Source: an uncultured virus (IMG/VR IMGVR_UViG_3300009378_001140) (Duplodnaviria; Heunggongvirae; Uroviricota; Caudoviricetes). Taken from it: a stretch of 64,000 nt of DNA. Every line of letters starts with the position of its first letter. Within the stretch, counting starts at the first letter, position 1. The stretch lies in IMG/VR virus record IMGVR_UViG_3300009378_001140; one strand, written 5' to 3'. The position numbers were made by a program, and so were the translations under genes. Below, piece by piece: positions 2,098 through 28,873 of the stretch. The notes under the pieces were generated by a model. That model ran no database searches, was not told where the DNA came from, and saw only the letters and a list, made by a program, of their open reading frames with translations.

Positions 2098-2447
2098 GAT
2101 GCTCTCACCATTGTCTGTTGCTGACGATCTCTTTGCAGTATCTCTTTGAGAGTTTTCTCTCTCCACGCTGTTGTGCTCGGCGACTCCCAGTGACCCCAGG
2201 GGAAACCCAGGACATCCCAACCCTTGTTTGTCAGCGTTAGCTCCCAATTTGACGTTTGTTTCACCCACTTCCGTTTCATGATCACCTCAAGGGTGTTTTT
2301 CTTTATCACCCGCTGCGGGTTCTCATGCCTGTGACACAACACGCGGTCAGATCCTGCGAACCAGAACCCACCTAGAGCTATTCGGGTCAACGCCTGACGC
2401 TGGACATCTGTCACCCTTCTCTCACTCATGATCTCACCCCTTGACAC
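2094..2447 (-). CDS. hypothetical protein (possible winged helix)
   Basis: ORF coupled to rtcB; C-terminal LTNKGW is typical of a wing. Confidence 0.5.
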   Translation of the reverse strand: MSRGEIMSERRVTDVQRQALTRIALGGFWFAGSDRVLCHRHENPQRVIKKNTLEVIMKRKWVKQTSNWELTLTNKGWDVLGFPWGHWESPSTTAWREKTLKEILQRDRQQQTMVRAS

Positions 2448-3651
2448 AAACGACAGCGCGGAGTGTATGGAGGACCTCGACCAGATCTGATTGTGCCTTC
2501 ATAACATCCTCGATCGGCTTGTAGCTCATCGGTGTTTCATCGATCACATCCTCATCCTTCCTACACTCCAATCCTTCTGTTGCGCGAGCGTGATCCTCAA
2601 CAGAGAACAGCGCCTTCGCCCTGGTCCGTGACATCGCCCTGCCTGCGCCGTGCGAACAGGAGTTGAACGATTCCTTATCTCCCTTTCCTCTCACAATGAA
2701 TGAGCTACGTCCCATCGCGCCAGGAATGATTCCCAGGTCACCTCGCTGCGCTCTGACCGCGCCCTTTCTTGTCACCCACACGCTCCTTCCGAAGTGTTGT
2801 TCCTTCGCGATGTAGTTGTGGTGACAGTTAACGACGAAATCACCGTGGGAGAACTCTCGTCGAAGCGCCCATGAGATCGAGTCAAGAGCACGATCCATCA
2901 TCAGCTCACGGTTCACCTTCGCGAATCGCTGGGCCCAGTTGACCGCCTGAACATAATCCTTGAAGTGCGGTGACCCCTGTGGGATGTACGCGAGATCCTT
3001 GTCAGGCAGGTTGATGAACCAGCGCTCCATATCCTTCTTTGCCAGTGAGATGAAGTGGGTTCCGATACGGTTCCCAACACCTCGTGAACCTGAGTGGAGC
3101 ATGACCCAAACAGAATCGCCCTCATCGACACACACCTCTATGAAGTGGTTACCTGAACCCAGGCTAGACAGGTGTCGCACGTTATTCGACTTCGCGAGGC
3201 GCGGGTGTTTATCGCAGATCACATCGAAATCATCCTTGAGGGTGTTCCACTTACGTGCGACGTCGTCAGGGATATCTCTCCACGCACCCTCGTCACGTGA
3301 ACCTCCGTGGTGGGTCCTGCCATGCGGGATCATCCGTTCAATCCGAGAGCGCACCTTCTGCATGTTGTCAGGCAAGTCGCTCGCTGTCAGAGATGTGCGA
3401 ACTGCCATCATCCCACATCCCAAGTCGACGCCGACAGCGGCGGGAACGATCGCGTTAAGTGTGGGAATGACACTCCCGACGCAGGCGCCTTTCCCCATGT
3501 GCGCGTCGGGCATCACCGCGATGTGACGATGGATGAACGGCAGGGATGACAACCTTCTCAGCTGATCCCTGGCCTGATCCTCAACGTGAACTCCCCTGGT
3601 CCACATCTTAACCAGACCAGGGGAGTTATCTAGCACATCGTAGCTTGACAT
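2434..3651 (-). CDS. rtcB: RtcB-family RNA ligase
   Basis: MPDAHMGKG, VGVDLGCG, GSGNHF, HSGSRG, HN and HGAGR motifs. Confidence 0.97.
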   Translation of the reverse strand: MSSYDVLDNSPGLVKMWTRGVHVEDQARDQLRRLSSLPFIHRHIAVMPDAHMGKGACVGSVIPTLNAIVPAAVGVDLGCGMMAVRTSLTASDLPDNMQKVRSRIERMIPHGRTHHGGSRDEGAWRDIPDDVARKWNTLKDDFDVICDKHPRLAKSNNVRHLSSLGSGNHFIEVCVDEGDSVWVMLHSGSRGVGNRIGTHFISLAKKDMERWFINLPDKDLAYIPQGSPHFKDYVQAVNWAQRFAKVNRELMMDRALDSISWALRREFSHGDFVVNCHHNYIAKEQHFGRSVWVTRKGAVRAQRGDLGIIPGAMGRSSFIVRGKGDKESFNSCSHGAGRAMSRTRAKALFSVEDHARATEGLECRKDEDVIDETPMSYKPIEDVMKAQSDLVEVLHTLRAVVCVKG

Positions 3652-21236: not shown

Positions 21237-21506
21237 TCATTCAGTAAATTGCTGCATCACATCTAGCTCTTCTTCAAGAAAGCTTTTCCTAGCTCCGTTT
21301 ACACTAACAGAATAACTGACTGACAAAGTGCTCTTGCCATTTGACATGCTGTCATACAATGATATCTCATATGATCCTAATATCGTCCCAGCTTCCTTTT
21401 TATCATATGTCACAACTCCATCAACAACTGATGGATTTATTAAGATGGCAACTGTATCACCTTTATTATATTTTTTAGTCACAGCGCAATTTATCCTTAA
21501 TAACAA
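21237..21506 (-). CDS. KOW/SH3-like hypothetical protein
   Basis: KYNKGDTVAI...EEELD. Confidence 0.5.
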   Translation of the reverse strand: MLLRINCAVTKKYNKGDTVAILINPSVVDGVVTYDKKEAGTILGSYEISLYDSMSNGKSTLSVSYSVSVNGARKSFLEEELDVMQQFTE

Positions 21507-21532
21507 TATCTTCTTTTATTTACACACATCAC

Positions 21533-21757
21533 TCAGCTGTCTAAGTCAATTCTATCTATAATAACAACTACCTGATATCCCATAAACGTCAGAGGCAATG
21601 ACCTTCTAACACTTTCAGAATCCTCAGGGTTTGCTACTACCTCTATCAAGGAGCCAAATGAGCTATAGCATATTTTTGCATCATATTCACATGATAGCAT
21701 CTTAGGCAATCCTTTTTTAAACTCCTTAAAGACTTTAGATATCGATTCTTTTTTCAC
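21533..21757 (-). CDS. hypothetical protein
   Basis: ORF in the minus-strand run. Confidence 0.5.
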   Translation of the reverse strand: MKKESISKVFKEFKKGLPKMLSCEYDAKICYSSFGSLIEVVANPEDSESVRRSLPLTFMGYQVVVIIDRIDLDS

Positions 21758-21760
21758 TGA

Positions 21761-22279
21761 TTAAAATCCCATCTGTTTAACAGTTTCATATAATAGTATA
21801 TTTGCGACCTGTGATGTGTTTAAACAGTATCCAACACCGGGCATGGGAATGTGAATAATGTCACTATTTCTTAGAATCTCTGCTGGGACTCCGGTCTCCT
21901 CATTGCCAACCACCAGACACACTCGACATGTAAAGTCAAATCTATAAGAGCCAATTGGTCTTGATCCCTCGCAGATTTCTGCTGATACGAGTTTGATCCT
22001 TTCACCCTCAGCCCAATCTAAAAAATCGCGAGGTGATGAGTGTTGTTTGATATCTACAAAGTCACATAGACTTCCAGACAAAGGGTTTAACATCTTTCGT
22101 TTCGGAACTGATCCGATTACATGCACTCGCTCTGCTCCAAAACATGCTGCAGCCCTTATTAGATACCCAAGATTTCCATCATGCATAAAATTAATACAAC
22201 AAAGACTAACGGGGTATGACTTAGCATTTTTCAATTTTAGGCTATATCTCTCTCTTCTAGTATTGCTTCGCGTATTCAC
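21761..22279 (-). CDS. SpoU/TrmH-family RNA 2'-O-methyltransferase
   Basis: NLG.LIRAAACFG; VGNE..GV; IPMPG...CLN.S. Confidence 0.93.
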   Translation of the reverse strand: MNTRSNTRRERYSLKLKNAKSYPVSLCCINFMHDGNLGYLIRAAACFGAERVHVIGSVPKRKMLNPLSGSLCDFVDIKQHSSPRDFLDWAEGERIKLVSAEICEGSRPIGSYRFDFTCRVCLVVGNEETGVPAEILRNSDIIHIPMPGVGYCLNTSQVANILLYETVKQMGF

Positions 22280-22764
22280 TTATCTCTCTCACTATCATCC
22301 TTTAACATCGAATCATTAGAAAGATCATCAAGATAATCAAACTGTAGCTTCTGAAGATTGCATGTAAAAAACGGATCCTTCTCTTCAAATTCCTTTAGAT
22401 ACTTTTCATCTATGATTGTCTGAAATGTTATGACTCCGCTATCTTTCATCTTTTTTACATAGAACGGATTATCATCATAATAAACAGATATGTTATGAGA
22501 TCTTATCTGATCTAGCTTGTGATCCGCCATTCTCTTAAAATGATCAAGGGTCATATCTGATTTATCATACTCAAAGCCGCACAAAATATCATCATACATA
22601 TCTTCAGTGATTTTCAAGCTATTCAGACCTTCAGATATCTCATTTTTTCTAGAAGCAGGTGTTCCAGTTACTATGTAGATCTTTCCCTTCCAAAGTCTTA
22701 TTAGCTCTATAAAAAAGTCAGGAGAATATGAAAGCGTGTCGTGAAAATCAATTCCAATGTTCAT
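22276..22764 (-). CDS. HAD-superfamily hydrolase-like protein
   Basis: MNIGIDFHDT, IVTG, YYDDNP; start reassigned because the longer ORF overlaps a tRNA. Confidence 0.7.
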   Translation of the reverse strand: MNIGIDFHDTLSYSPDFFIELIRLWKGKIYIVTGTPASRKNEISEGLNSLKITEDMYDDILCGFEYDKSDMTLDHFKRMADHKLDQIRSHNISVYYDDNPFYVKKMKDSGVITFQTIIDEKYLKEFEEKDPFFTCNLQKLQFDYLDDLSNDSMLKDDSERDK

Positions 22765-22790
22765 CTTGCGCACCTTTTTAAAGATAAATA

Positions 22791-22878
22791 TGGCAGTGAG
22801 GGTGGGATTCGAACCCACGGTGCCTTACAACACTCAGGTTTTCAAGACCTGCGCCTTAAGCCTCTCGGCCACCTCACT
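22791..22878 (-). tRNA. tRNA-Ser(UGA)
   Basis: AGTGAGG/CCTCACT acceptor, CAGGT-CT TGA AA-ACCTG, long variable arm, G73, encoded CCA. Confidence 0.95.
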
Positions 22879-22883
22879 AGTTG

Positions 22884-22950
22884 TGGAGCCTCCGGTCAGA
22901 TTCGAACTGAGAACTGGCCGCGGAGATTCTAACCACTGAATTAAGTGCCC
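22884..22950 (-). pseudogene. chimeric tRNA remnant (orphan 5' arm joined to the 3' half of another tRNA)
   Basis: GGGCACT-TA-ATTC AGTGGTTA GAAT, no anticodon arm, then TCAG TTCGAAT CTGAC CGGAGGC TCCA; the two acceptor strands do not pair. Confidence 0.75.
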
Positions 22951-22956
22951 TGAGAA

Positions 22957-23043
22957 TGGAGCTCAGAGTGGGATTCAAACCCACGACGTACTTTCGTATC
23001 AGGATTACAAAACCTGTTCCTTCGATCACTCGGACATCTGAGC
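22957..23043 (-). tRNA. tRNA-Thr(UGU) with an atypical long variable arm
   Basis: GCTCAGA/TCTGAGC acceptor, CAGGT-TT TGT AA-TCCTG, variable hairpin TAC GAAA GTA, U73, CCA. Confidence 0.85.
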
Positions 23044-23790
23044 ATTAAAATTTTTATACTTACTATAGCCTCTCCTGAAGCAATGTTCATCATAAAATTC
23101 TGGCATCAATCGTCTCAATCGCCTGCCTGTAACTTGAGAAACTTCGCCAAAACGTTCGCTAAGCTTTTCTACCCACCCAAACTTTGAAAAATCAATTTCT
23201 CCAGATTCGTGTAAATCTTTTACTTTCTCTACGAACTTCTTATTAAACTCTTCTTTCAATTCTTTCAAGGTCGATCTTTCTTTCTGATATTTTTCAAAAT
23301 CCTTGTTTCCTTTTCGAATTCTAGCTGACGTTTTCTTGTTGCTTTTCCTGCCCCAGTTTCGAAAATTTGAAGTTAGTGCATGACAATTTGGACACAAAAC
23401 CCTGAGATTATCTTTTGAATTATTCTTATGATTTCCATCAATGTGATCGATCTCTAGTATTGAACTTCCACACTTTCTCGTTTTATCAAACCCACACTCT
23501 GAACATTTGAAATTTACTTCTTGGATCAAAATATTTCTTTTAATGGCCCATCCCACTTCGTTCCATGATCTTTTGCAGAATCGATTATGAGCTGCTCGCG
23601 CCCTGTGTGTATCAAACTGTCTACTACACTCATCACATTTATGATTTCCTAGCGCGTTTAAATCTCTACGCCTTTGTATTTTTCGATTTTTTGATCCTTC
23701 TCCATTACAAGCTACTATATGCTTACTAATATTATTAGCACTAAAATAGTCATTGCACAACTCGCAGTGTTTCATTTTGTTTGCTGACAT
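23026..23790 (-). CDS. HNH endonuclease with N-terminal zinc fingers (homing-endonuclease-like)
   Basis: CxxC..H fingers; CSECG...EIDHIDGN..NN...NL..LCPNCH; stop codon lies inside the tRNA-Thr gene. Confidence 0.92.
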   Translation of the reverse strand: MSANKMKHCELCNDYFSANNISKHIVACNGEGSKNRKIQRRRDLNALGNHKCDECSRQFDTHRARAAHNRFCKRSWNEVGWAIKRNILIQEVNFKCSECGFDKTRKCGSSILEIDHIDGNHKNNSKDNLRVLCPNCHALTSNFRNWGRKSNKKTSARIRKGNKDFEKYQKERSTLKELKEEFNKKFVEKVKDLHESGEIDFSKFGWVEKLSERFGEVSQVTGRRLRRLMPEFYDEHCFRRGYSKYKNFNAQMSE

Positions 23791-23840
23791 ACATATCTAT
23801 TATATAGACAATTCGAACTTTTGTTTAGGATAAGATAAAG

Positions 23841-23867
23841 TGCAATAGGCCACTATGCGACGGAGGC
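23841..23867 (-). pseudogene. orphan 5' half of a tRNA
   Basis: GCCTCCG-TC-GCAT AGTGGCCT ATTGC-A; the acceptor strand is the exact complement of CGGAGGC at 22888-22894. Confidence 0.75.
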
Positions 23868-23903
23868 AATAAGTAAAAGAACGAAAAGAACGAGCTGTCT
23901 AAC

Positions 23904-24320
23904 TTACGAGAGCGTGGTCTCGGTGATCTCAACCCTGAAGGTTGTCTCATTGATATACTCTGGCTCCCACAGCTCATCAGCGTGGCACTGAAAGAACATC
24001 ACGAGATCACTCAGGCACGGCTCACCGTCAGCGTGGAGGTCAGCCCACTCAATCCCTGCATTGATCCGAGCAGGGATGTCACACCACATGTCCTCCTCAT
24101 TCCAGCTGTCATAGAGGTACATCTTTGTATACTCCTTTACAAGACAACGCTCAGCGTCCTCGCGGCTCTTGAACGTGCCGACAACGTTAGAGTATGTCTC
24201 AGCACGCTTGTAACAGTCGATCTCATCGAATTTTGTCACGGTATACACCGTCTCAACGGCGTCTTCCACCTCAACATTATCTGTTTCCTCTGCTGTATTT
24301 TTAAACCTAACTGTGATCAT
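23904..24320 (-). CDS. hypothetical protein
   Basis: 138-aa acidic ORF with GGGAG RBS; locally more GC-rich. Confidence 0.6.
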   Translation of the reverse strand: MITVRFKNTAEETDNVEVEDAVETVYTVTKFDEIDCYKRAETYSNVVGTFKSREDAERCLVKEYTKMYLYDSWNEEDMWCDIPARINAGIEWADLHADGEPCLSDLVMFFQCHADELWEPEYINETTFRVEITETTLS

Positions 24321-24356
24321 ACTATTTCTCCCTTATGTTGTTTTGATAGCAAAATT

Positions 24357-24441
24357 TGGTAGGCACGGTAGGACTCGAACCTACATGCACCAATTACCCT
24401 AGTTTTATGCACGGTATATAAGACCGCTGGGATACGTGCCC
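24357..24441 (-). ncRNA. tRNA-Ile(UAU)-like RNA with internally permuted D-arm
   Basis: GGGCACG/CGTGCCT acceptor, A73-CCA, perfect T-arm, GCGGT-CT TAT AT-ACCGT arm; D-arm elements are in swapped order. Confidence 0.8.
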
Positions 24442-24460
24442 AAATAATTCATCTATGTCA

Positions 24461-24489
24461 ATTATATTCTAATCGTTACACATTTACAC
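24461..24489 (-). promoter_or_regulatory. promoter directly upstream of the tRNA-Ile-like RNA
   Basis: GTGTAA-17 nt-TATAAT. Confidence 0.75.
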
Positions 24490-24496
24490 GAAAAAG

Positions 24497-24571
24497 TGGC
24501 TGGGGCGGGAGGGGTCGAACCTCCAGCTTCGGCATTAACAGTGCCGCGTTCTGCCATTGAACTACACCCCA
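24497..24571 (-). tRNA. tRNA-Asn(GUU)
   Basis: Canonical cloverleaf, CGGCA-CT GTT AA-TGCCG, G73, CCA. Confidence 0.97.
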
Positions 24572-24817
24572 TCACTGTTGCTCATTCTCATCAGAAGTAA
24601 AAGCCTCACCGATGATCTTGCTGATGCCCTTGACATATCCTGGATTATGTGTGTTGTTGACATCAAGCCAGACTCTGACCCAGTCATCCCAGACGACTTG
24701 GATCTTATCGAGTGGATAGACCTCCATGACTGTTCCAAGTTTGCCTGTTTTTTGACATTGAACTCTGTCACCGTACAGATAGTTATTTGACATCTGTGTT
24801 AGCATCTTCTTTTTCAT
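24572..24817 (-). CDS. small KOW/SH3-like hypothetical protein
   Basis: YLYGDRVQ...GKLGTV...VVWDD. Confidence 0.55.
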   Translation of the reverse strand: MKKKMLTQMSNNYLYGDRVQCQKTGKLGTVMEVYPLDKIQVVWDDWVRVWLDVNNTHNPGYVKGISKIIGEAFTSDENEQQ

Positions 24818-24828
24818 GATATATCCTT

Positions 24829-24857
24829 ATTATACACAATAGGCAAAGAAATTACAC
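24829..24857 (-). promoter_or_regulatory. sigma70-like promoter
   Basis: GTGTAA-17 nt-TATAAT. Confidence 0.75.
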
Positions 24858-24858
24858 A

Positions 24859-25929
24859 CTATAGCAACTTAATGTGAGTGGAGCTTTCAATCGCTCCTGA
24901 TGATGTCTGACAGATGAATCTTGCCTTTGCATGAAGCTCATCGATGTTTATTGCGCCGGTATATGACAAACCTGATCTGATTCCTGCGCCTATCTCTCTT
25001 AAGACGCTATCGACAGACCCCTTTGTCTGAACTATGGTTGACACTCCCTCAAGAGATGACGCGTGACCTCGCCAGTCAATTTGAGCCTCTGCAGATGCCA
25101 TTCCACGATAGGCCTTATACGTCTTATCACCTTTATAAATTATCTCACCTGGAGATTCAAGTGTGCCTGATAACATTGACCCTAGCATTACAAAGTCTGC
25201 ACCTGCCGCAAGAGCTTTGACGATATCTCCGCTATTTTTAATTCCGCCATCCGCAACAATCTGTACAGATCCAGCAAACTCTGATGACGATATGTCAAGA
25301 ATAGATTGAAATGTTGGAACACCATGACCAGTTTGAATTCGAGTGGAACATATCGATCCACCTCCCACACCTACTCTAACACTTGTCGCGCCCCACCTTG
25401 ACAGGTCATCAAACCCTTCTCTTGTTGCAACATTTCCTGCCATGATATGAACATCTCTAATCTCTTTACGAAGAGCCTCAAGAGCAGTTTTCATCATTGT
25501 GTGATGACCATGAGCAACATCAACACATAGAACTTTTACACCTGATCTCACTAGCTCTACTGCTCTATCAACATAATCACCTGTTATTCCAATAGCTGCG
25601 CCAACATTTTTTACTCCATTCCTTCGTGCGATCAAAACCTCAGACACCTGATCGTCGATTGTATTGTATCTATGAATTATTCCCATTCCACCAGATAGGC
25701 ACATCTTCTCTGCCATAGCTCCGCAAGTTACAGTATCCATTGGGCTTGAAAAAATAGGAAGACCTAATCGACCGACCCTCTCCAAAGATGATCCTATGTC
25801 TATCTTAGACCTGCTTCTAATTTCAGAGTACTGTGGAACCAACAGGACATCATCAAAACAAAGGCCTGTCATAAATTTTTCATAATTTTTCTTACTAATA
25901 AGCATGTGATCTCCCGCAATATTTCTCAC
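24859..25929 (-). CDS. guaB: IMP dehydrogenase / GMP reductase family, lacking CBS domains
   Basis: [34 protein letters not shown] and YRGMAS. Confidence 0.9.
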
Positions 25930-27542
25930 ACAAAGCTTTTCTTAAACTCTTCAGGAAACATATCTCTATTCTGTCTAAAGAATCTTTCCCAGTCAGAATC
26001 TAGAATGTACGTTACAGCACTATCATCTTCTGATCTTACACTTCGTCCTGCAGACTGAACTATCTTTTTTGCAGTCTGTAGGGGATACCATCCTTTCCAC
26101 TTATTCATTCTCTTCTTTATAAGCGGATCTCCAAGATAGGGATATGGAATCTTCATTATGATCTGAAATCTTGATAGATCACCGTGAAGGTCAACACCCT
26201 CAGACATTGAAGGTGATAGTAAAACTGTCGGCTCTTTTGATCTCATGTGCTTTCTTAGAATCTCATCCCTGTTTTCACTAGTATGAATTAAAAGCCTCTT
26301 TGACCTAATGTGACTCTTTAGATATTTTGCAATTCGATAAGTGTGGCAGTGAATAACTCCCTTCGAATTCTTGTGTTCCTTTAGAATTTCTCTAACCGCT
26401 TGCGTCATTTTCGGAAGAGACATATCAATGTTTTTAGCACTCATACTTCCAATCGGATATGATATCACGGGTCGATTCTCAACAGCAAACGGTGAGGGAA
26501 TTGAAATAAATGCGACATCAGACTCATCAAGACCTAGAGATCTACAAAATGTCTTGTGATCTAATATCGTCGCTGACATCATAAGAATCTTATCACCCAA
26601 CCTGAACAGATATTCGTCAGCAAAAGGAGACACATCAATTGCCTTGAATACAAACTTCCTCTTCGATCGACCGTATGCGCTGACACTATCCATCACCCAG
26701 TTATCTTTATCGTATACCTTGAGAAACTTTTCAATTTTTCCAACGTGAGACTTTAGCATGTCATACTGCTTTGAAAGTGATGCAAATTCCTTAATTCTGC
26801 TTTTAAGACCCGTCTCTTTAAGCGTCTTATCCATGTGGCTAAGCTGTGATTTGATCTTAGGAAAATATGTCTCCTTCATCCACTTCACAACCTGAAACTG
26901 TGTGGTGTGGACAGGCCATGATATCTTCAATGCGTGCTTAACAAACCTCTCAGAGACTGTTACTTCAACAAACTTACTCAGCTCAGATTCAATATTGTGA
27001 CACTCATCTATCACAAGAACGCGTCTAGGGGTTATCTTTCTAGAAAATGCTGCTTCTGTTAGAAAATATGGAAAATTTGTAACAGACGAAGGTGAATCTA
27101 GAAACTTTTGTTTTGCATTTTTGTATGTGCAATTATATGTGCACACCTTAAAGAAGCGACTGTCTTTGTCTTCATTTCTTATTAGCCTCTGCGATTCTTG
27201 ACATGAATTTTTTTTATGATATGAGCACTTATAATTTGACGAAGACTTTATTGACTTCATGCTCCCACGACGGCATCCGAAGTCATTTTCATATTGATCT
27301 TGCAAGATCTTTTGAGTCGTTACAAAATATGATCCAGGAGAATATTCATCGACACTGCCAAGATTGTTATTTAAATATCTTGAAACAGTTAGTCCAATTG
27401 CTGATTTTCCTGTTCCAGTTCCTGACTCTAAGATAACTAGCTTTTTTTCATTGTTGATAAATGCATTTAACGCAAAGTTAATTGCTTTAACCTGACAATC
27501 TCTGATCTTTTCGTGTGGAAATAATTTAGTATAGTCAAACAT
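25926..27542 (-). CDS. DinG/XPD-family helicase
   Basis: GTGTGKS, Cys cluster, DECH, SAT, EGVD, K.PYP and QSAGRSVRS. Confidence 0.92.
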   Translation of the reverse strand: MFDYTKLFPHEKIRDCQVKAINFALNAFINNEKKLVILESGTGTGKSAIGLTVSRYLNNNLGSVDEYSPGSYFVTTQKILQDQYENDFGCRRGSMKSIKSSSNYKCSYHKKNSCQESQRLIRNEDKDSRFFKVCTYNCTYKNAKQKFLDSPSSVTNFPYFLTEAAFSRKITPRRVLVIDECHNIESELSKFVEVTVSERFVKHALKISWPVHTTQFQVVKWMKETYFPKIKSQLSHMDKTLKETGLKSRIKEFASLSKQYDMLKSHVGKIEKFLKVYDKDNWVMDSVSAYGRSKRKFVFKAIDVSPFADEYLFRLGDKILMMSATILDHKTFCRSLGLDESDVAFISIPSPFAVENRPVISYPIGSMSAKNIDMSLPKMTQAVREILKEHKNSKGVIHCHTYRIAKYLKSHIRSKRLLIHTSENRDEILRKHMRSKEPTVLLSPSMSEGVDLHGDLSRFQIIMKIPYPYLGDPLIKKRMNKWKGWYPLQTAKKIVQSAGRSVRSEDDSAVTYILDSDWERFFRQNRDMFPEEFKKSFV

Positions 27543-27594
27543 AATCTTGTATTTTTATTCTATCCCGCTATTTTTGACACTGCTATGTTAATTG

Positions 27595-27681
27595 TGGTAG
27601 GGCGAGAGGGACTCGAACCCTCAAGGGCAAATTGCCCAGCGGGTTTTAAGCCCGCCTCGTAGACCATTCCGACATCACCCC
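27595..27681 (-). tRNA. tRNA-Leu(UAA)
   Basis: GGGGTGA/TCGCCCT acceptor, GCGGG-CT TAA AA-CCCGC, long variable arm, A73, CCA. Confidence 0.95.
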
Positions 27682-27706
27682 AAAGCTTGTATCTCATTTC
27701 AGAAAT

Positions 27707-27735
27707 ATTATACATCAGCTTCTACAGGTTTACAC
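27707..27735 (-). promoter_or_regulatory. promoter upstream of tRNA-Leu
   Basis: GTGTAA-17 nt-TATAAT. Confidence 0.75.
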
Positions 27736-27736
27736 G

Positions 27737-27901
27737 CTATTGGTCATACAACCTGTCTAATATTACTATCATCATGATGCTTGAAATCGCACCAACAGAG
27801 CTAAAGCAAAATGATGAAACGTTTGAAAGCACCGCAGAGAGAATTATTACTGATATATTTGTTGCAAGTATGAGATACCAAAATTGAAGATGTCTTAGCA
27901 A
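27737..27901 (-). CDS. small two-TM membrane protein (54 aa; absent from the ORF track)
   Basis: GGAG RBS, TTG start, two hydrophobic segments. Confidence 0.45.
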   Translation of the reverse strand: MLRHLQFWYLILATNISVIILSAVLSNVSSFCFSSVGAISSIMMIVILDRLYDQ

Positions 27902-27940
27902 TTTTACTCTCCGCTTTCATTTCTCTCAAGACACATTTCT

Positions 27941-28873
27941 CTATAGGGAGACCTTATATCCAACCTCAACAAGCTCACCATAATCAGGAATAAATCCCAA
28001 TCTCACGGCATTCATCTCTTCAATATATTCCCAGTCATGTGTCTGAACTCTTTCGACATAAACCACTATTGATTTAACGACTGGATCATCGGAACTCAAA
28101 ACTATGCTGTCTCTCATCTGCGTTATAAACGATGATTCAGATAACCATAAAGACCAGTCATCTGCACAAATATCAATCGAATCCTTTCCATATAGACTAG
28201 CTAGCTCTGTGTACTTATATCCATATTCCCACGTATACGGACACTCGCTGTCGCCGCTATCAATTGTCGTTATTGACACAACATCATGGTCAACGTCAAC
28301 AAATGACGCGTCCATCCAATCTTTAAAAATAGATGGAGTTATATTACTTTGTTCATCCTCGTCAGAAATAAAAAATAGTAAAAAATCAGACTCATCTCTT
28401 GAAAATTCTACACCTTCTGACGACGTTAAAAACGTGTATGTTGCTGCAAAGCCTTCCTCATAGAATGTTGAGGGTAAGAGGCTTGGTGCCATCAACATGT
28501 CTAGGGTACCTGAGTTGATGTCATATGGTCCTTGATATCCCAGATTTGTTGAATCAGCCGTGATATATCCAAACTGGTAATTGGATGTAAGCATCTCAAT
28601 ATCTAGTCGAAGAAGATCCATTCCGCTTGCAACTGTTGAAAAGTTATCACTCATGCTACATGACGTGTCAAGCACAACAAGCACATCAAGACTATCTATT
28701 TTATCAACCTGTGTAAATGAATCAACAATGACACGAGTTTCAGACTGATCAGTCATCTTAAAATCGCTACTGCACCCAGACAGCATAAAAAGCACGCCAG
28801 CAAGAGACAATATGAACATGCAGGTCTTTTGACAAGCTAAAGACAGATAACTATCGGGCAGACCCAGCTGCAT
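27941..28873 (-). CDS. vWA-domain lipoprotein, paralogue of 15507..17099
   Basis: Lipobox LSGC; DTSCSM, ITADS, ISDEDEQS and ICADDW. Confidence 0.8.
   Translation of the reverse strand: MQLGLPDSYLSLACQKTCMFILSLAGVLFMLSGCSSDFKMTDQSETRVIVDSFTQVDKIDSLDVLVVLDTSCSMSDNFSTVASGMDLLRLDIEMLTSNYQFGYITADSTNLGYQGPYDINSGTLDMLMAPSLLPSTFYEEGFAATYTFLTSSEGVEFSRDESDFLLFFISDEDEQSNITPSIFKDWMDASFVDVDHDVVSITTIDSGDSECPYTWEYGYKYTELASLYGKDSIDICADDWSLWLSESSFITQMRDSIVLSSDDPVVKSIVVYVERVQTHDWEYIEEMNAVRLGFIPDYGELVEVGYKVSL

Follow-up and report, generated by a model that had tools for sequence, protein, structure and literature searches.

In the DNA of an uncultured virus (IMG/VR IMGVR_UViG_3300009378_001140), the two ends of a broken tRNA gene lie on either side of a predicted HNH homing-endonuclease gene, an intact tRNA-Thr(UGU) gene and most of a tRNA(CAU) gene. 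We examined this locus within a window of 64,000 nucleotides (nt), that is, the whole stretch of DNA analysed, and refer to the split gene as tRNA X; L-numbers denote the loci compared with it, G-numbers denote genomes or records, and X1, X2, X4 and X5 are Logan sequencing runs. The arrangement was probably generated by intron-free homing, in which an HNH cassette bringing its companion tRNA-Thr(UGU) and most of a tRNA(CAU) was copied into X, itself probably a tRNA gene of Thr type.

Anatomy of the interrupted tRNA gene

All features of the locus are on the minus strand, and its central part is made up as follows.

23840..23867, minus strand: 5' remnant of tRNA X, with the GCCTCCG acceptor strand, U8-C9, the D-arm, A26 and C27 (sequence reading)
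23791..23839, minus strand: 49-nt non-tRNA spacer from the remnant to the HNH start, holding one TTCGAAT (sequence reading)
23026..23790, minus strand: HNH homing-endonuclease gene, 254 amino acids, apparently intact (open reading frame (ORF), Pfam, PHROG)
22957..23043, minus strand: companion tRNA-Thr(UGU) with a long variable arm, 87 nt, U73 and encoded CCA (ARAGORN; Rfam tRNA)
22896..22950, minus strand: body of tRNA(CAU), positions 1-64, with a 9-nt deletion between 22921 and 22920 (BLAST against the intact tRNA(CAU) of L126 and L127)
22884..22895, minus strand: 3' remnant of tRNA X, with position 65, the CGGAGGC acceptor strand, U73 and CCA (departure from L126 at position 65)

The D-arm of the 5' remnant has a stem of 3-4 bp and GG in its loop, and the stretch as far as A26 corresponds to 23867-23841. 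The CGGAGGC of the 3' remnant (22884-22895) is fully complementary to 23861-23867 (7/7), and this heptamer together with its complement occurs twice in the 64-kb window, precisely at the two remnants, with 1.76 occurrences expected by chance window-wide. A sequence-only reading of this DNA had described 5' and 3' tRNA pieces with perfectly complementary acceptor strands and no anticodon arm, a description that both the sequence and the heptamer count bear out; an anticodon arm adjoins neither piece, and about a third of X is gone. Direct reading confirms, in addition, that G1-C72, C2-G71 and U73 are common to X and the inserted tRNA-Thr(UGU). Placed at the end of the searched stretch, the 5' remnant gave no tRNA match in Rfam, the piece being too short, and the region around the spacer, 23785-23870, does not fold more stably than its shuffled versions (z 0.69).

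The 3' remnant is joined, within the T-arm, to the body of a different tRNA. A search of viral contigs with the 26-nt 5' arm at 22950-22925 returned two contigs that carry an intact tRNA(CAU) (L126 and L127), one of which is the complete 161-kb phage G002. Window positions 22951-22896, comprising the body and one base 5' of it, agree with this intact tRNA in 55 of 56 bases, apart from a 9-nt gap that takes out the anticodon loop (BLAST). From position 65 onwards the window has C, CGGAGGC, U and CCA, whereas the other phages have a strand that pairs with tRNA(CAU)'s own 5' end. Because the 55/56 match ends at position 65, the T-arm is that of tRNA(CAU) and X contributes no more than its last ~12 nt; the apparent 3' half is, on this comparison, a chimera of a tRNA(CAU) body and the end of X. 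Rfam scores the chimera as a tRNA at only 11.9 bits (E 3.7), and it has no match among GenBank phages. Its T-arm contains a C49-C65 mismatch, on account of which we place the junction inside a 15-nt stretch, TCAGTTCGAATCTGA, that would have been common to X and the donor tRNA(CAU).

The earlier assignment of 22884-22910 to the 3' half of the split tRNA therefore stands for the ~12 nt at 22884-22895 and fails for the T-arm, which is that of tRNA(CAU). The orphan 5' arm of a third tRNA that had been recognised separately at 22926-22950 proves to be no separate element, since both belong to one tRNA(CAU) body. With a chimera on the 3' side, two tRNA genes rather than one have been wrecked: tRNA(CAU), with a mismatched acceptor stem and no anticodon loop, and X, with no anticodon arm, are both predicted to be dead. 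The loss of the anticodon loop from tRNA(CAU) may be simple decay after its acceptor stem had been spoiled.

That an HNH gene lies between the tRNA pieces, as first proposed, is confirmed by the 254-residue ORF at 23790-23026, which matches Pfam HNH (E 6.1e-5, 23.5 bits against a cut-off of 21.4) and the HNH family PHROG 14736 (E 1.4e-17). The protein has 494 homologues, the best at 62% identity, and keeps all the invariant catalytic or zinc-binding residues of the family (C96, C99, H116, N128, C133, C136 and H137). With its HNH core, its own start and stop, and a position outside any intron or intein, the gene is predicted to encode a free-standing HNH homing endonuclease. No intron family, group I included, matched in an Rfam search of 22000-28500 at E values up to 10, and the insert leaves only ~50 nt plus 6 nt (about 56 nt) outside the ORF and tRNAs; these two results support the view that the arrangement is intron-free, without room for a group I core.

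The companion tRNA and the type of tRNA X

The first 18 nt of the companion tRNA overlap the end of the HNH ORF, including its stop codon. ARAGORN assigns it the anticodon UGU and the Rfam tRNA model gives 51.3 bits against a gathering score of 29, so that the intact tRNA-Thr reported at this place is confirmed; its anticodon stem ends in a single U-U mismatch. Among GenBank phages it finds an 81% match in a 595-kb uncultured phage, which is likewise a long-arm tRNA-Thr(UGU) with U73. The long-arm class comprises 14 sequences from phages and Eremiobacterota-type metagenome-assembled genomes (MAGs) that share a cloverleaf with an extra 3-bp arm. Compensatory changes are seen in 18 of its 23 pairs, including all three pairs of the extra arm, and G1-C72 and C2-G71 are present in every one of the 14. 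Its members are the window copy (22957-23043, minus strand), L129:2981-3063, L136, L146, L153, L177, L226 and L250, together with L255, L256, L274, L282, L288 and L289. As a side observation, these genes, found in huge phages and Eremiobacterota-type MAGs, have a 3-bp stem with a mostly GAAA loop and a type-II-like D-arm, and they frequently adjoin an HNH gene; in open-access text we found no description of the class.

What remains of X resembles this class. Over positions 8-28, X is identical to the intact tRNA-Thr(UGU) of L177 at 19 of 21 positions, with the same U8-C9, U73 and encoded CCA, and the 5' parts of both L177 and L153 are nearly identical to X. When the acceptor stem of X followed by UCCA was sought as a pattern in IMG/VR, 38 matches were obtained, 20 of which were not tRNAs; 12 of the 18 tRNAs called by ARAGORN are Thr. 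On the strength of the 19/21 identity and of the predominance of Thr among tRNAs with the same stem, X was probably a long-arm Thr-type tRNA, and the earlier statement that the split gene was a tRNA-Thr fits these data.

An HNH family tied to tRNA genes

To place the locus among its relatives, we used a profile-guided scan of viral contigs that gave 80 loci sharing the HNH core, recording tRNAs within about 2 kb, and a survey of genome contigs that gave another 80 loci, mostly from MAGs of Patescibacteria, Saccharibacteria and Eremiobacterota. tRNAs lie within the recorded distance at 63 of the 80 viral loci. A same-strand tRNA starts no more than 100 nt after the HNH stop at 40/80, the HNH stop codon falls inside the tRNA, as in the window, at 21/80, and a tRNA ends no more than 100 nt before the estimated HNH start at 38/80. 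Among the genome contigs, 74 of 80 have tRNAs; in 61 of 80 a tRNA-Thr(UGU) is found within 450 nt of the HNH core, and in 52 of 80 it is on the same strand. The pairing of an HNH gene with tRNA-Thr(UGU) is, judged by gene order, a widespread module.

We then asked how often the HNH gene is flanked by matching tRNA pieces, using a script that required a T-arm and 3' acceptor strand downstream and, upstream, a complementary 7-mer followed by U8 and a D-arm. It covered the 59 viral loci with any downstream 3' end. Pieces paired at 7/7 positions across the HNH gene were found at 14 of these 59 loci, the window not counted among the positives, against 1 of 59 in a reversed-strand control. Half of the 14 (L141, L149, L155, L157, L161, L166 and L192) are intron-free layouts like that of the window; at L138 and L181 the HNH gene resides in a group I intron of a tRNA-Leu(UAA) gene, and L159, L169, L200, L205 and L210 are uninspected or chance-like. 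In all, paired tRNA pieces lie across an HNH gene at at least seven viral loci and on one MAG contig. The layouts seen are the following.

L141: tRNA-Ala(UGC) broken between U34 and G35 by an HNH gene and a different, intact tRNA-Ala(UGC)
L192: 5' piece, HNH gene, intact tRNA-Val(UAC), 3' piece; no anticodon arm
L149: 5' piece, HNH gene, tRNA-Val, and a Phe-type tRNA with a 3' strand complementary to the distant piece instead of to its own 5' strand
L161 and L155: 5' piece, HNH gene, complete tRNA of the same kind
L157: complete tRNA, HNH gene, 3' piece
L166: 5' piece, HNH gene, 3' piece; no spare tRNA
L212: tRNA-Thr(UGU) broken after G35, enclosing tRNA-Thr(CGU) and an HNH gene

The insert of L141 starts and finishes with the cassette. 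L149 is the nearest parallel to the window, and the HNH protein of L212 is its closest full-length relative with genomic context (42% identity). Target and spare tRNA are of the same isotype at L141, where both are Ala, and at L212, where a Thr(UGU) target encloses a Thr(CGU) spare; the same probably holds for L192, whose target looks like a Val tRNA when set beside E. coli tRNA-Val. In L140, which is closely related to L141, the 5' piece is decayed and the 3' piece is gone; this loss and the variety of layouts make the pieces look like relics and not a conserved scaffold.

Members of the same family also occur as ORFs within group I introns in the anticodon loops of tRNA genes: L138, L143, L181 and L206 (tRNA-Leu UAA), L135 (Arg-like) and L232 (tRNA-Thr UGU). 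Of these intron cases, L143, L206 and L135 come from a wider scan, and L232 is a Mycoplasma MAG. In T4-like coliphages such as CM8, a full-length HNH homologue with 27-30% identity lies 7 nt upstream of a tRNA-Leu, and no tRNA remnant is visible beside the CM8 gene. Two HNH-adjacent tRNA genes, L155:2274-2391 and L205:2285-2445, carry insertions of ~40 nt and ~80 nt in the anticodon region and were missed by ARAGORN; the insertions may be small introns or scars. For piece-finding, an nhmmer profile of tRNA 5' halves was dropped, having given 16 matches against 401 called tRNAs, and a loose D-arm motif, which was noisy (139 orphan matches), served only as a guide for inspection by eye.

Probable homing into tRNA X

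For the origin of the locus, we infer the following order of events, cut site and complementation. The putative nuclease would have cut a tRNA gene, and the break would have been repaired from a cassette-bearing genome, copying the free-standing HNH gene into the resident X along with the donor DNA downstream of it, namely tRNA-Thr(UGU) and most of tRNA(CAU). The left crossover would lie directly after the D-arm of X, at position 27, and the right crossover inside the T-arm, in the stretch shared with the donor tRNA(CAU). Such an exchange would leave the 5' end of X upstream of the cassette and its last 12 nt welded onto the tRNA(CAU) body, and the companion tRNA-Thr(UGU), as the sole working tRNA of the three, could take the place of X provided that X decoded Thr. 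The earlier idea of an intron-free homing element that destroys its target tRNA and would make good the loss with a cleavage-resistant isoacceptor gains from the lack of an intron, the intact HNH residues, the tight link between the family and tRNA genes, and the layouts of this kind at other loci; it loses by the failure to find an uninterrupted allele and by the presence of two wrecked tRNAs.

Several results weigh against homing into X. In the first place, a scheme with one target and one spare leaves the tRNA(CAU) body unexplained. Secondly, an intact tRNA-Thr allele starting GCCTCCG, which had been expected in related phages, was not found in the viral and metagenome contigs searched: an exact 26-mer of X had 0 matches in viral contigs, a 20-mer had 2 chance matches in metagenome contigs, both in unrelated high-GC coding DNA without a tRNA, the 18 tRNAs found in viral contigs with the acceptor-pair pattern (38 matches) include none with the D-arm of X, and the same pattern had 0 matches in G002 and G003. 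Nor was there an HNH-free contig in any of the four runs (X1, X2, X4 and X5), whose contigs drop rare variants. One contig of run X5, which skips from 24358 to 22951, was considered as an HNH-free allele and rejected; its 14 inserted letters, three base differences and 9-nt insertion match G002, and since spacer, base differences and the 9 nt are those of G002, it comes from a G002-like phage.

Thirdly, no close relative of the phage was found that would show the donor, the recipient or the order of events. The 162-residue product of a flanking ORF has three relatives at 60-63% identity, which are not syntenic. Comparison with 80 IMP dehydrogenase (IMPDH) loci (blastn-short) revealed nothing like the split pieces or the tRNA-Thr(UGU), only an 18-nt match to an unusual tRNA-Ile described below; the HNH protein alone found no relatives of the locus in viral contigs, and in GenBank phages the tRNA-Ser next to the locus was the sole match to the window DNA. 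Fourthly, leftover Thr pieces accompany only 2 of the 56 bacterial loci with a same-strand tRNA-Thr(UGU), from which we conclude that splitting is not the general mode of the HNH family.

Finally, the isotype of X is deduced without an anticodon, and in a contig from run X1, at depth 9.14, a stretch of 22 letters resembling the X D-arm (23840-23861) runs into the anticodon arm of a Ser(GCU) tRNA. In that contig 26 other letters form the Ser(GCU) anticodon arm and the start of a long variable arm, and are followed by a T-arm like that of tRNA-Ser(UGA), at 22824; a D-arm of the X type is therefore not exclusive to Thr. The joint itself (22824 to 23840) was tried as a variant of the window and rejected, its short side being 22 letters and only ~1.5 being added to the bin depth; it is probably a type-II Ser(GCU)-type tRNA of another genome in the sample.

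Alternative explanations

The HNH gene could instead be a bystander, with the pieces arising through ordinary recombination or decay between the D-arm and T-arm sequences of clustered tRNAs and the nuclease playing no part in the break. Orphan pieces are indeed plentiful in phage tRNA clusters where no HNH gene is near (34 short matches of this sort were listed), the right junction requires only 15 nt of shared T-arm, and the HNH homologue of CM8 sits cleanly upstream of tRNA-Leu with no visible remnant. Set against this are the excess of paired pieces around HNH genes over the reversed-strand control, the exactness of the L141 break, which falls between U34 and G35 with an insert bounded by the cassette, and the frequency with which the HNH stop lies inside the next tRNA. 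The precision of the L141 break and the 21 loci with the stop inside a tRNA point to the nuclease gene as the inserted unit, and we regard a bystander role as unlikely.

Homing also has to be weighed against a function for the pieces in RNA, in which the distant ends would pair into a top half of acceptor, T-arm and D-arm around the HNH mRNA, somewhat in the manner of tmRNA, directing RNase P and 3' processing and stabilising the message. The perfect 7-bp complementarity, the encoded CCA and the comparable end pairs at other loci would all suit such a scaffold, as would the minimum-energy fold of the 1011-nt RNA, which pairs both ends, a shuffle control being impossible at such length. The layouts, however, vary between a piece with a full tRNA, a full tRNA with a piece, and both pieces; L140 has no 3' piece; and at L161 and L155 the 3' strand is part of a complete tRNA. 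In the window itself, the 3' strand is also able to pair locally with CUCCG of the chimera, and the T-arm has been taken from another tRNA and includes the C-C mismatch, while recent relics are equally expected to show perfect complementarity. We therefore disfavour, and consider quite improbable, the suggestion of an HNH mRNA wrapped between tRNA-like halves; the varied outcomes and the disappearance of pieces from relatives are in keeping with relics left by homing through double-strand-break repair and do not fit a conserved RNA scaffold.

Restoration of the tRNA by splicing of an intron, whether of group I or not, is more improbable still and is contradicted by the sequence. Relatives do sit in group I introns in anticodon loops (L138, L143, L181, L206, L135 and L232), and the phage encodes the ligase RtcB, but the pieces of X when joined yield no anticodon arm, the break falls at position 27, outside the anticodon loop, and neither the Rfam search nor the ~50 nt and 6 nt left outside the ORF and tRNAs accommodates an intron.

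Least credible of all is an assembly artefact joining unrelated tRNA-bearing fragments, since single Logan contigs in three separately assembled runs (X1, X2 and X4) cover 21500-25500 with 0 differences and a run from an independent study, X5, reproduces the 5' junction exactly. tRNA repeats can mislead assemblers, and X1, X2 and X4 may themselves come from the study in which the window originated. In run X5, one contig (23685-23978) spans the entire 5' junction with 0 differences, and a second covers 22276-22930, most of the 3' side, with 9 other letters. An IMG/VR viral record of 97 kb, rated 32% complete, is 100% identical to the window over 22700-24400, although it is possibly the same data. 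The contigs of X1, X2 and X4 across the whole locus, and of X5 at the 5' junction, support the junctions as real.

Flanking tRNAs and the phage

The broken tRNA gene is flanked by the following features.

22791..22878, minus strand: tRNA-Ser(UGA), normal (ARAGORN, Rfam)
23904..24320, minus strand: ORF of 138 amino acids, between the odd tRNA-Ile and the split tRNA; no family match (Pfam, PHROG)
24357..24441, minus strand: tRNA-Ile(UAU) without a normal D-arm (ARAGORN, Rfam)

Within the 138-residue ORF (23904-24320), G+C rises to 0.52, against about 0.33-0.43 in the surroundings, and no relatives of it were found in viral contigs. The window as a whole encodes a DnaE-type DNA polymerase, GroEL, Hsp70, RtcB, a SpoU methylase, IMP dehydrogenase/GMP reductase and a helicase; given this gene set and the 32% completeness of the 97-kb record, we take it to be a piece of a jumbo-phage genome. 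No further tRNAs were found in the rest of record G001 (37 kb beyond the window). The runs that contain the window sequence are marine or seawater metagenomes. RtcB, a tRNA-splicing and repair ligase, is encoded at 2434-3651 (minus strand; Pfam E 1.3e-125), and the SpoU-type RNA methylase at 21761-22279 (minus strand), near the tRNA cluster; the two would fit with repair of tRNAs or their protection from host tRNA nucleases.

The odd tRNA-Ile(UAU) has a homologue in G002, 15 nt upstream of the intact tRNA(CAU). It is one of a group of phage tRNAs that lack a normal D-arm: the partners of positions 11-13 are three bases located past the anticodon arm, and next comes a conserved segment resembling UAAUNGG. 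Its members and their anticodons are the window copy (24357-24441, minus strand; UAU), L126:3901-3985 (UAU), L128:2496-2577 (UCU), L203:2265-2344 (UAU) and L154:1178-1257 (minus strand; GAU). Across these five, 99% of cells are paired and compensatory changes occur in 12 of 20 pairs, including two of the three in the new helix. Such tRNAs are missed or mis-called by standard tRNA finders: ARAGORN mis-sized the window copy (99 nt), and Rfam aligned it without a D-arm. A Felixounavirus copy with anticodon UCU is unannotated in AYO145A, and the Felix O1 genome paper states that a tRNA for AGA was expected and not found (PMC3185647). In GenBank, 111 phage records match. A further kind of tRNA-Ile(UAU), of 90-95 nt with a normal D-arm and a long variable arm, was seen in phage tRNA clusters at L190:502-596, L212:4240-4334 and L134:1681-1770.

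Implications

Homing endonuclease genes are generally taken to persist either inside self-splicing introns or inteins or in the gaps between genes. To these a cassette of the present kind, breaking a tRNA gene but bringing a substitute, would add a third strategy, and it would offer a concrete route for the reshuffling, duplication and replacement of phage tRNA sets. We suggest, tentatively, that the HNH family may colonise tRNA genes harmlessly in two ways, either within a group I intron or by breaking the gene and bringing a spare of the same isotype ("replacement homing"), with D-arms and T-arms acting as portable homology arms and the host coming to depend on the tRNA of the element. If this were true, the near-constant pairing of HNH genes with tRNA-Thr(UGU) in Patescibacteria and Eremiobacterota would make a homing element the supplier of the tRNA with which many bacteria read ACA. 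Reshuffling of tRNAs bears, in addition, on phage escape from tRNA-cutting host defences, an escape which, according to a study of SegB, is achieved by SegB-driven rearrangement of tRNA loci (PMC13096335). The survey itself leaves three leads: the association of an HNH family with tRNA-Thr(UGU) in both phages and uncultured bacteria, the long-arm tRNA-Thr, and the phage tRNAs with a rearranged D-arm. In the open-access literature we found no description of an intron-free HNH cassette with a same-isotype spare tRNA inside a broken tRNA gene.

Comparison with known systems

The tRNA-cluster enzymes of phage T5 belong to the HNH family. The T5 nucleases F-TflI, II and IV are, like SegB, encoded in a tRNA cluster (PMC2330249), and HNH genes have been noted in tRNA clusters of mycobacteriophages (PMC6409571); the window shares with both a nuclease ORF encoded within a cluster of tRNA genes. 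SegB itself, a GIY-YIG nuclease of T4, recognises a conserved T-arm motif and cuts inside tRNA genes (PMC2330249), and its breaks, together with microhomology recombination, rearrange tRNA loci (PMC13096335); the two papers credit SegB with driving the inheritance and rearrangement of neighbouring tRNA genes (PMC2330249, PMC13096335). The locus resembles this system in having a free-standing nuclease gene among phage tRNA genes and a right junction in the T-arm, the motif recognised by SegB. It differs in that the nuclease is of the HNH and not the GIY-YIG type and that SegB is located between tRNA genes, and in its two-sided remnants of a split tRNA and its same-isotype companion, neither of which is described for SegB in the accessible parts of those papers (PMC2330249, PMC13096335). 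Unlike its homologue in CM8, the HNH gene of the window is flanked by tRNA remnants.

Two other systems have a host gene in two parts. Like MobE in the nrdA gene of phage Aeh1, the window has a free-standing homing-endonuclease gene inside a host gene. MobE reportedly splits nrdA into parts whose two protein halves still work together, whereas tRNA halves without an anticodon arm cannot form a tRNA. In the split tRNAs of Nanoarchaeum and other archaea, the halves between them make up a complete tRNA and are ligated once a bulge-helix-bulge motif has been cleaved. The window is similar in having 5' and 3' halves apart with complementary acceptor strands; it is unlike them in that its halves have no anticodon arm, the T-arm comes from tRNA(CAU) and a third of the tRNA is missing.

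The group I introns with an HNH ORF in tRNA anticodon loops involve the same HNH family and the same kind of host gene. In the window the ribozyme core (P3-P9) is absent, the break comes after position 27 and not in the anticodon loop, and no tRNA is restored by splicing; a separate tRNA gene is present in the insert instead. At L141 (U34/G35) and L212 (after G35), by comparison, an intron-free cassette breaks the tRNA at or beside the classical group I intron site.

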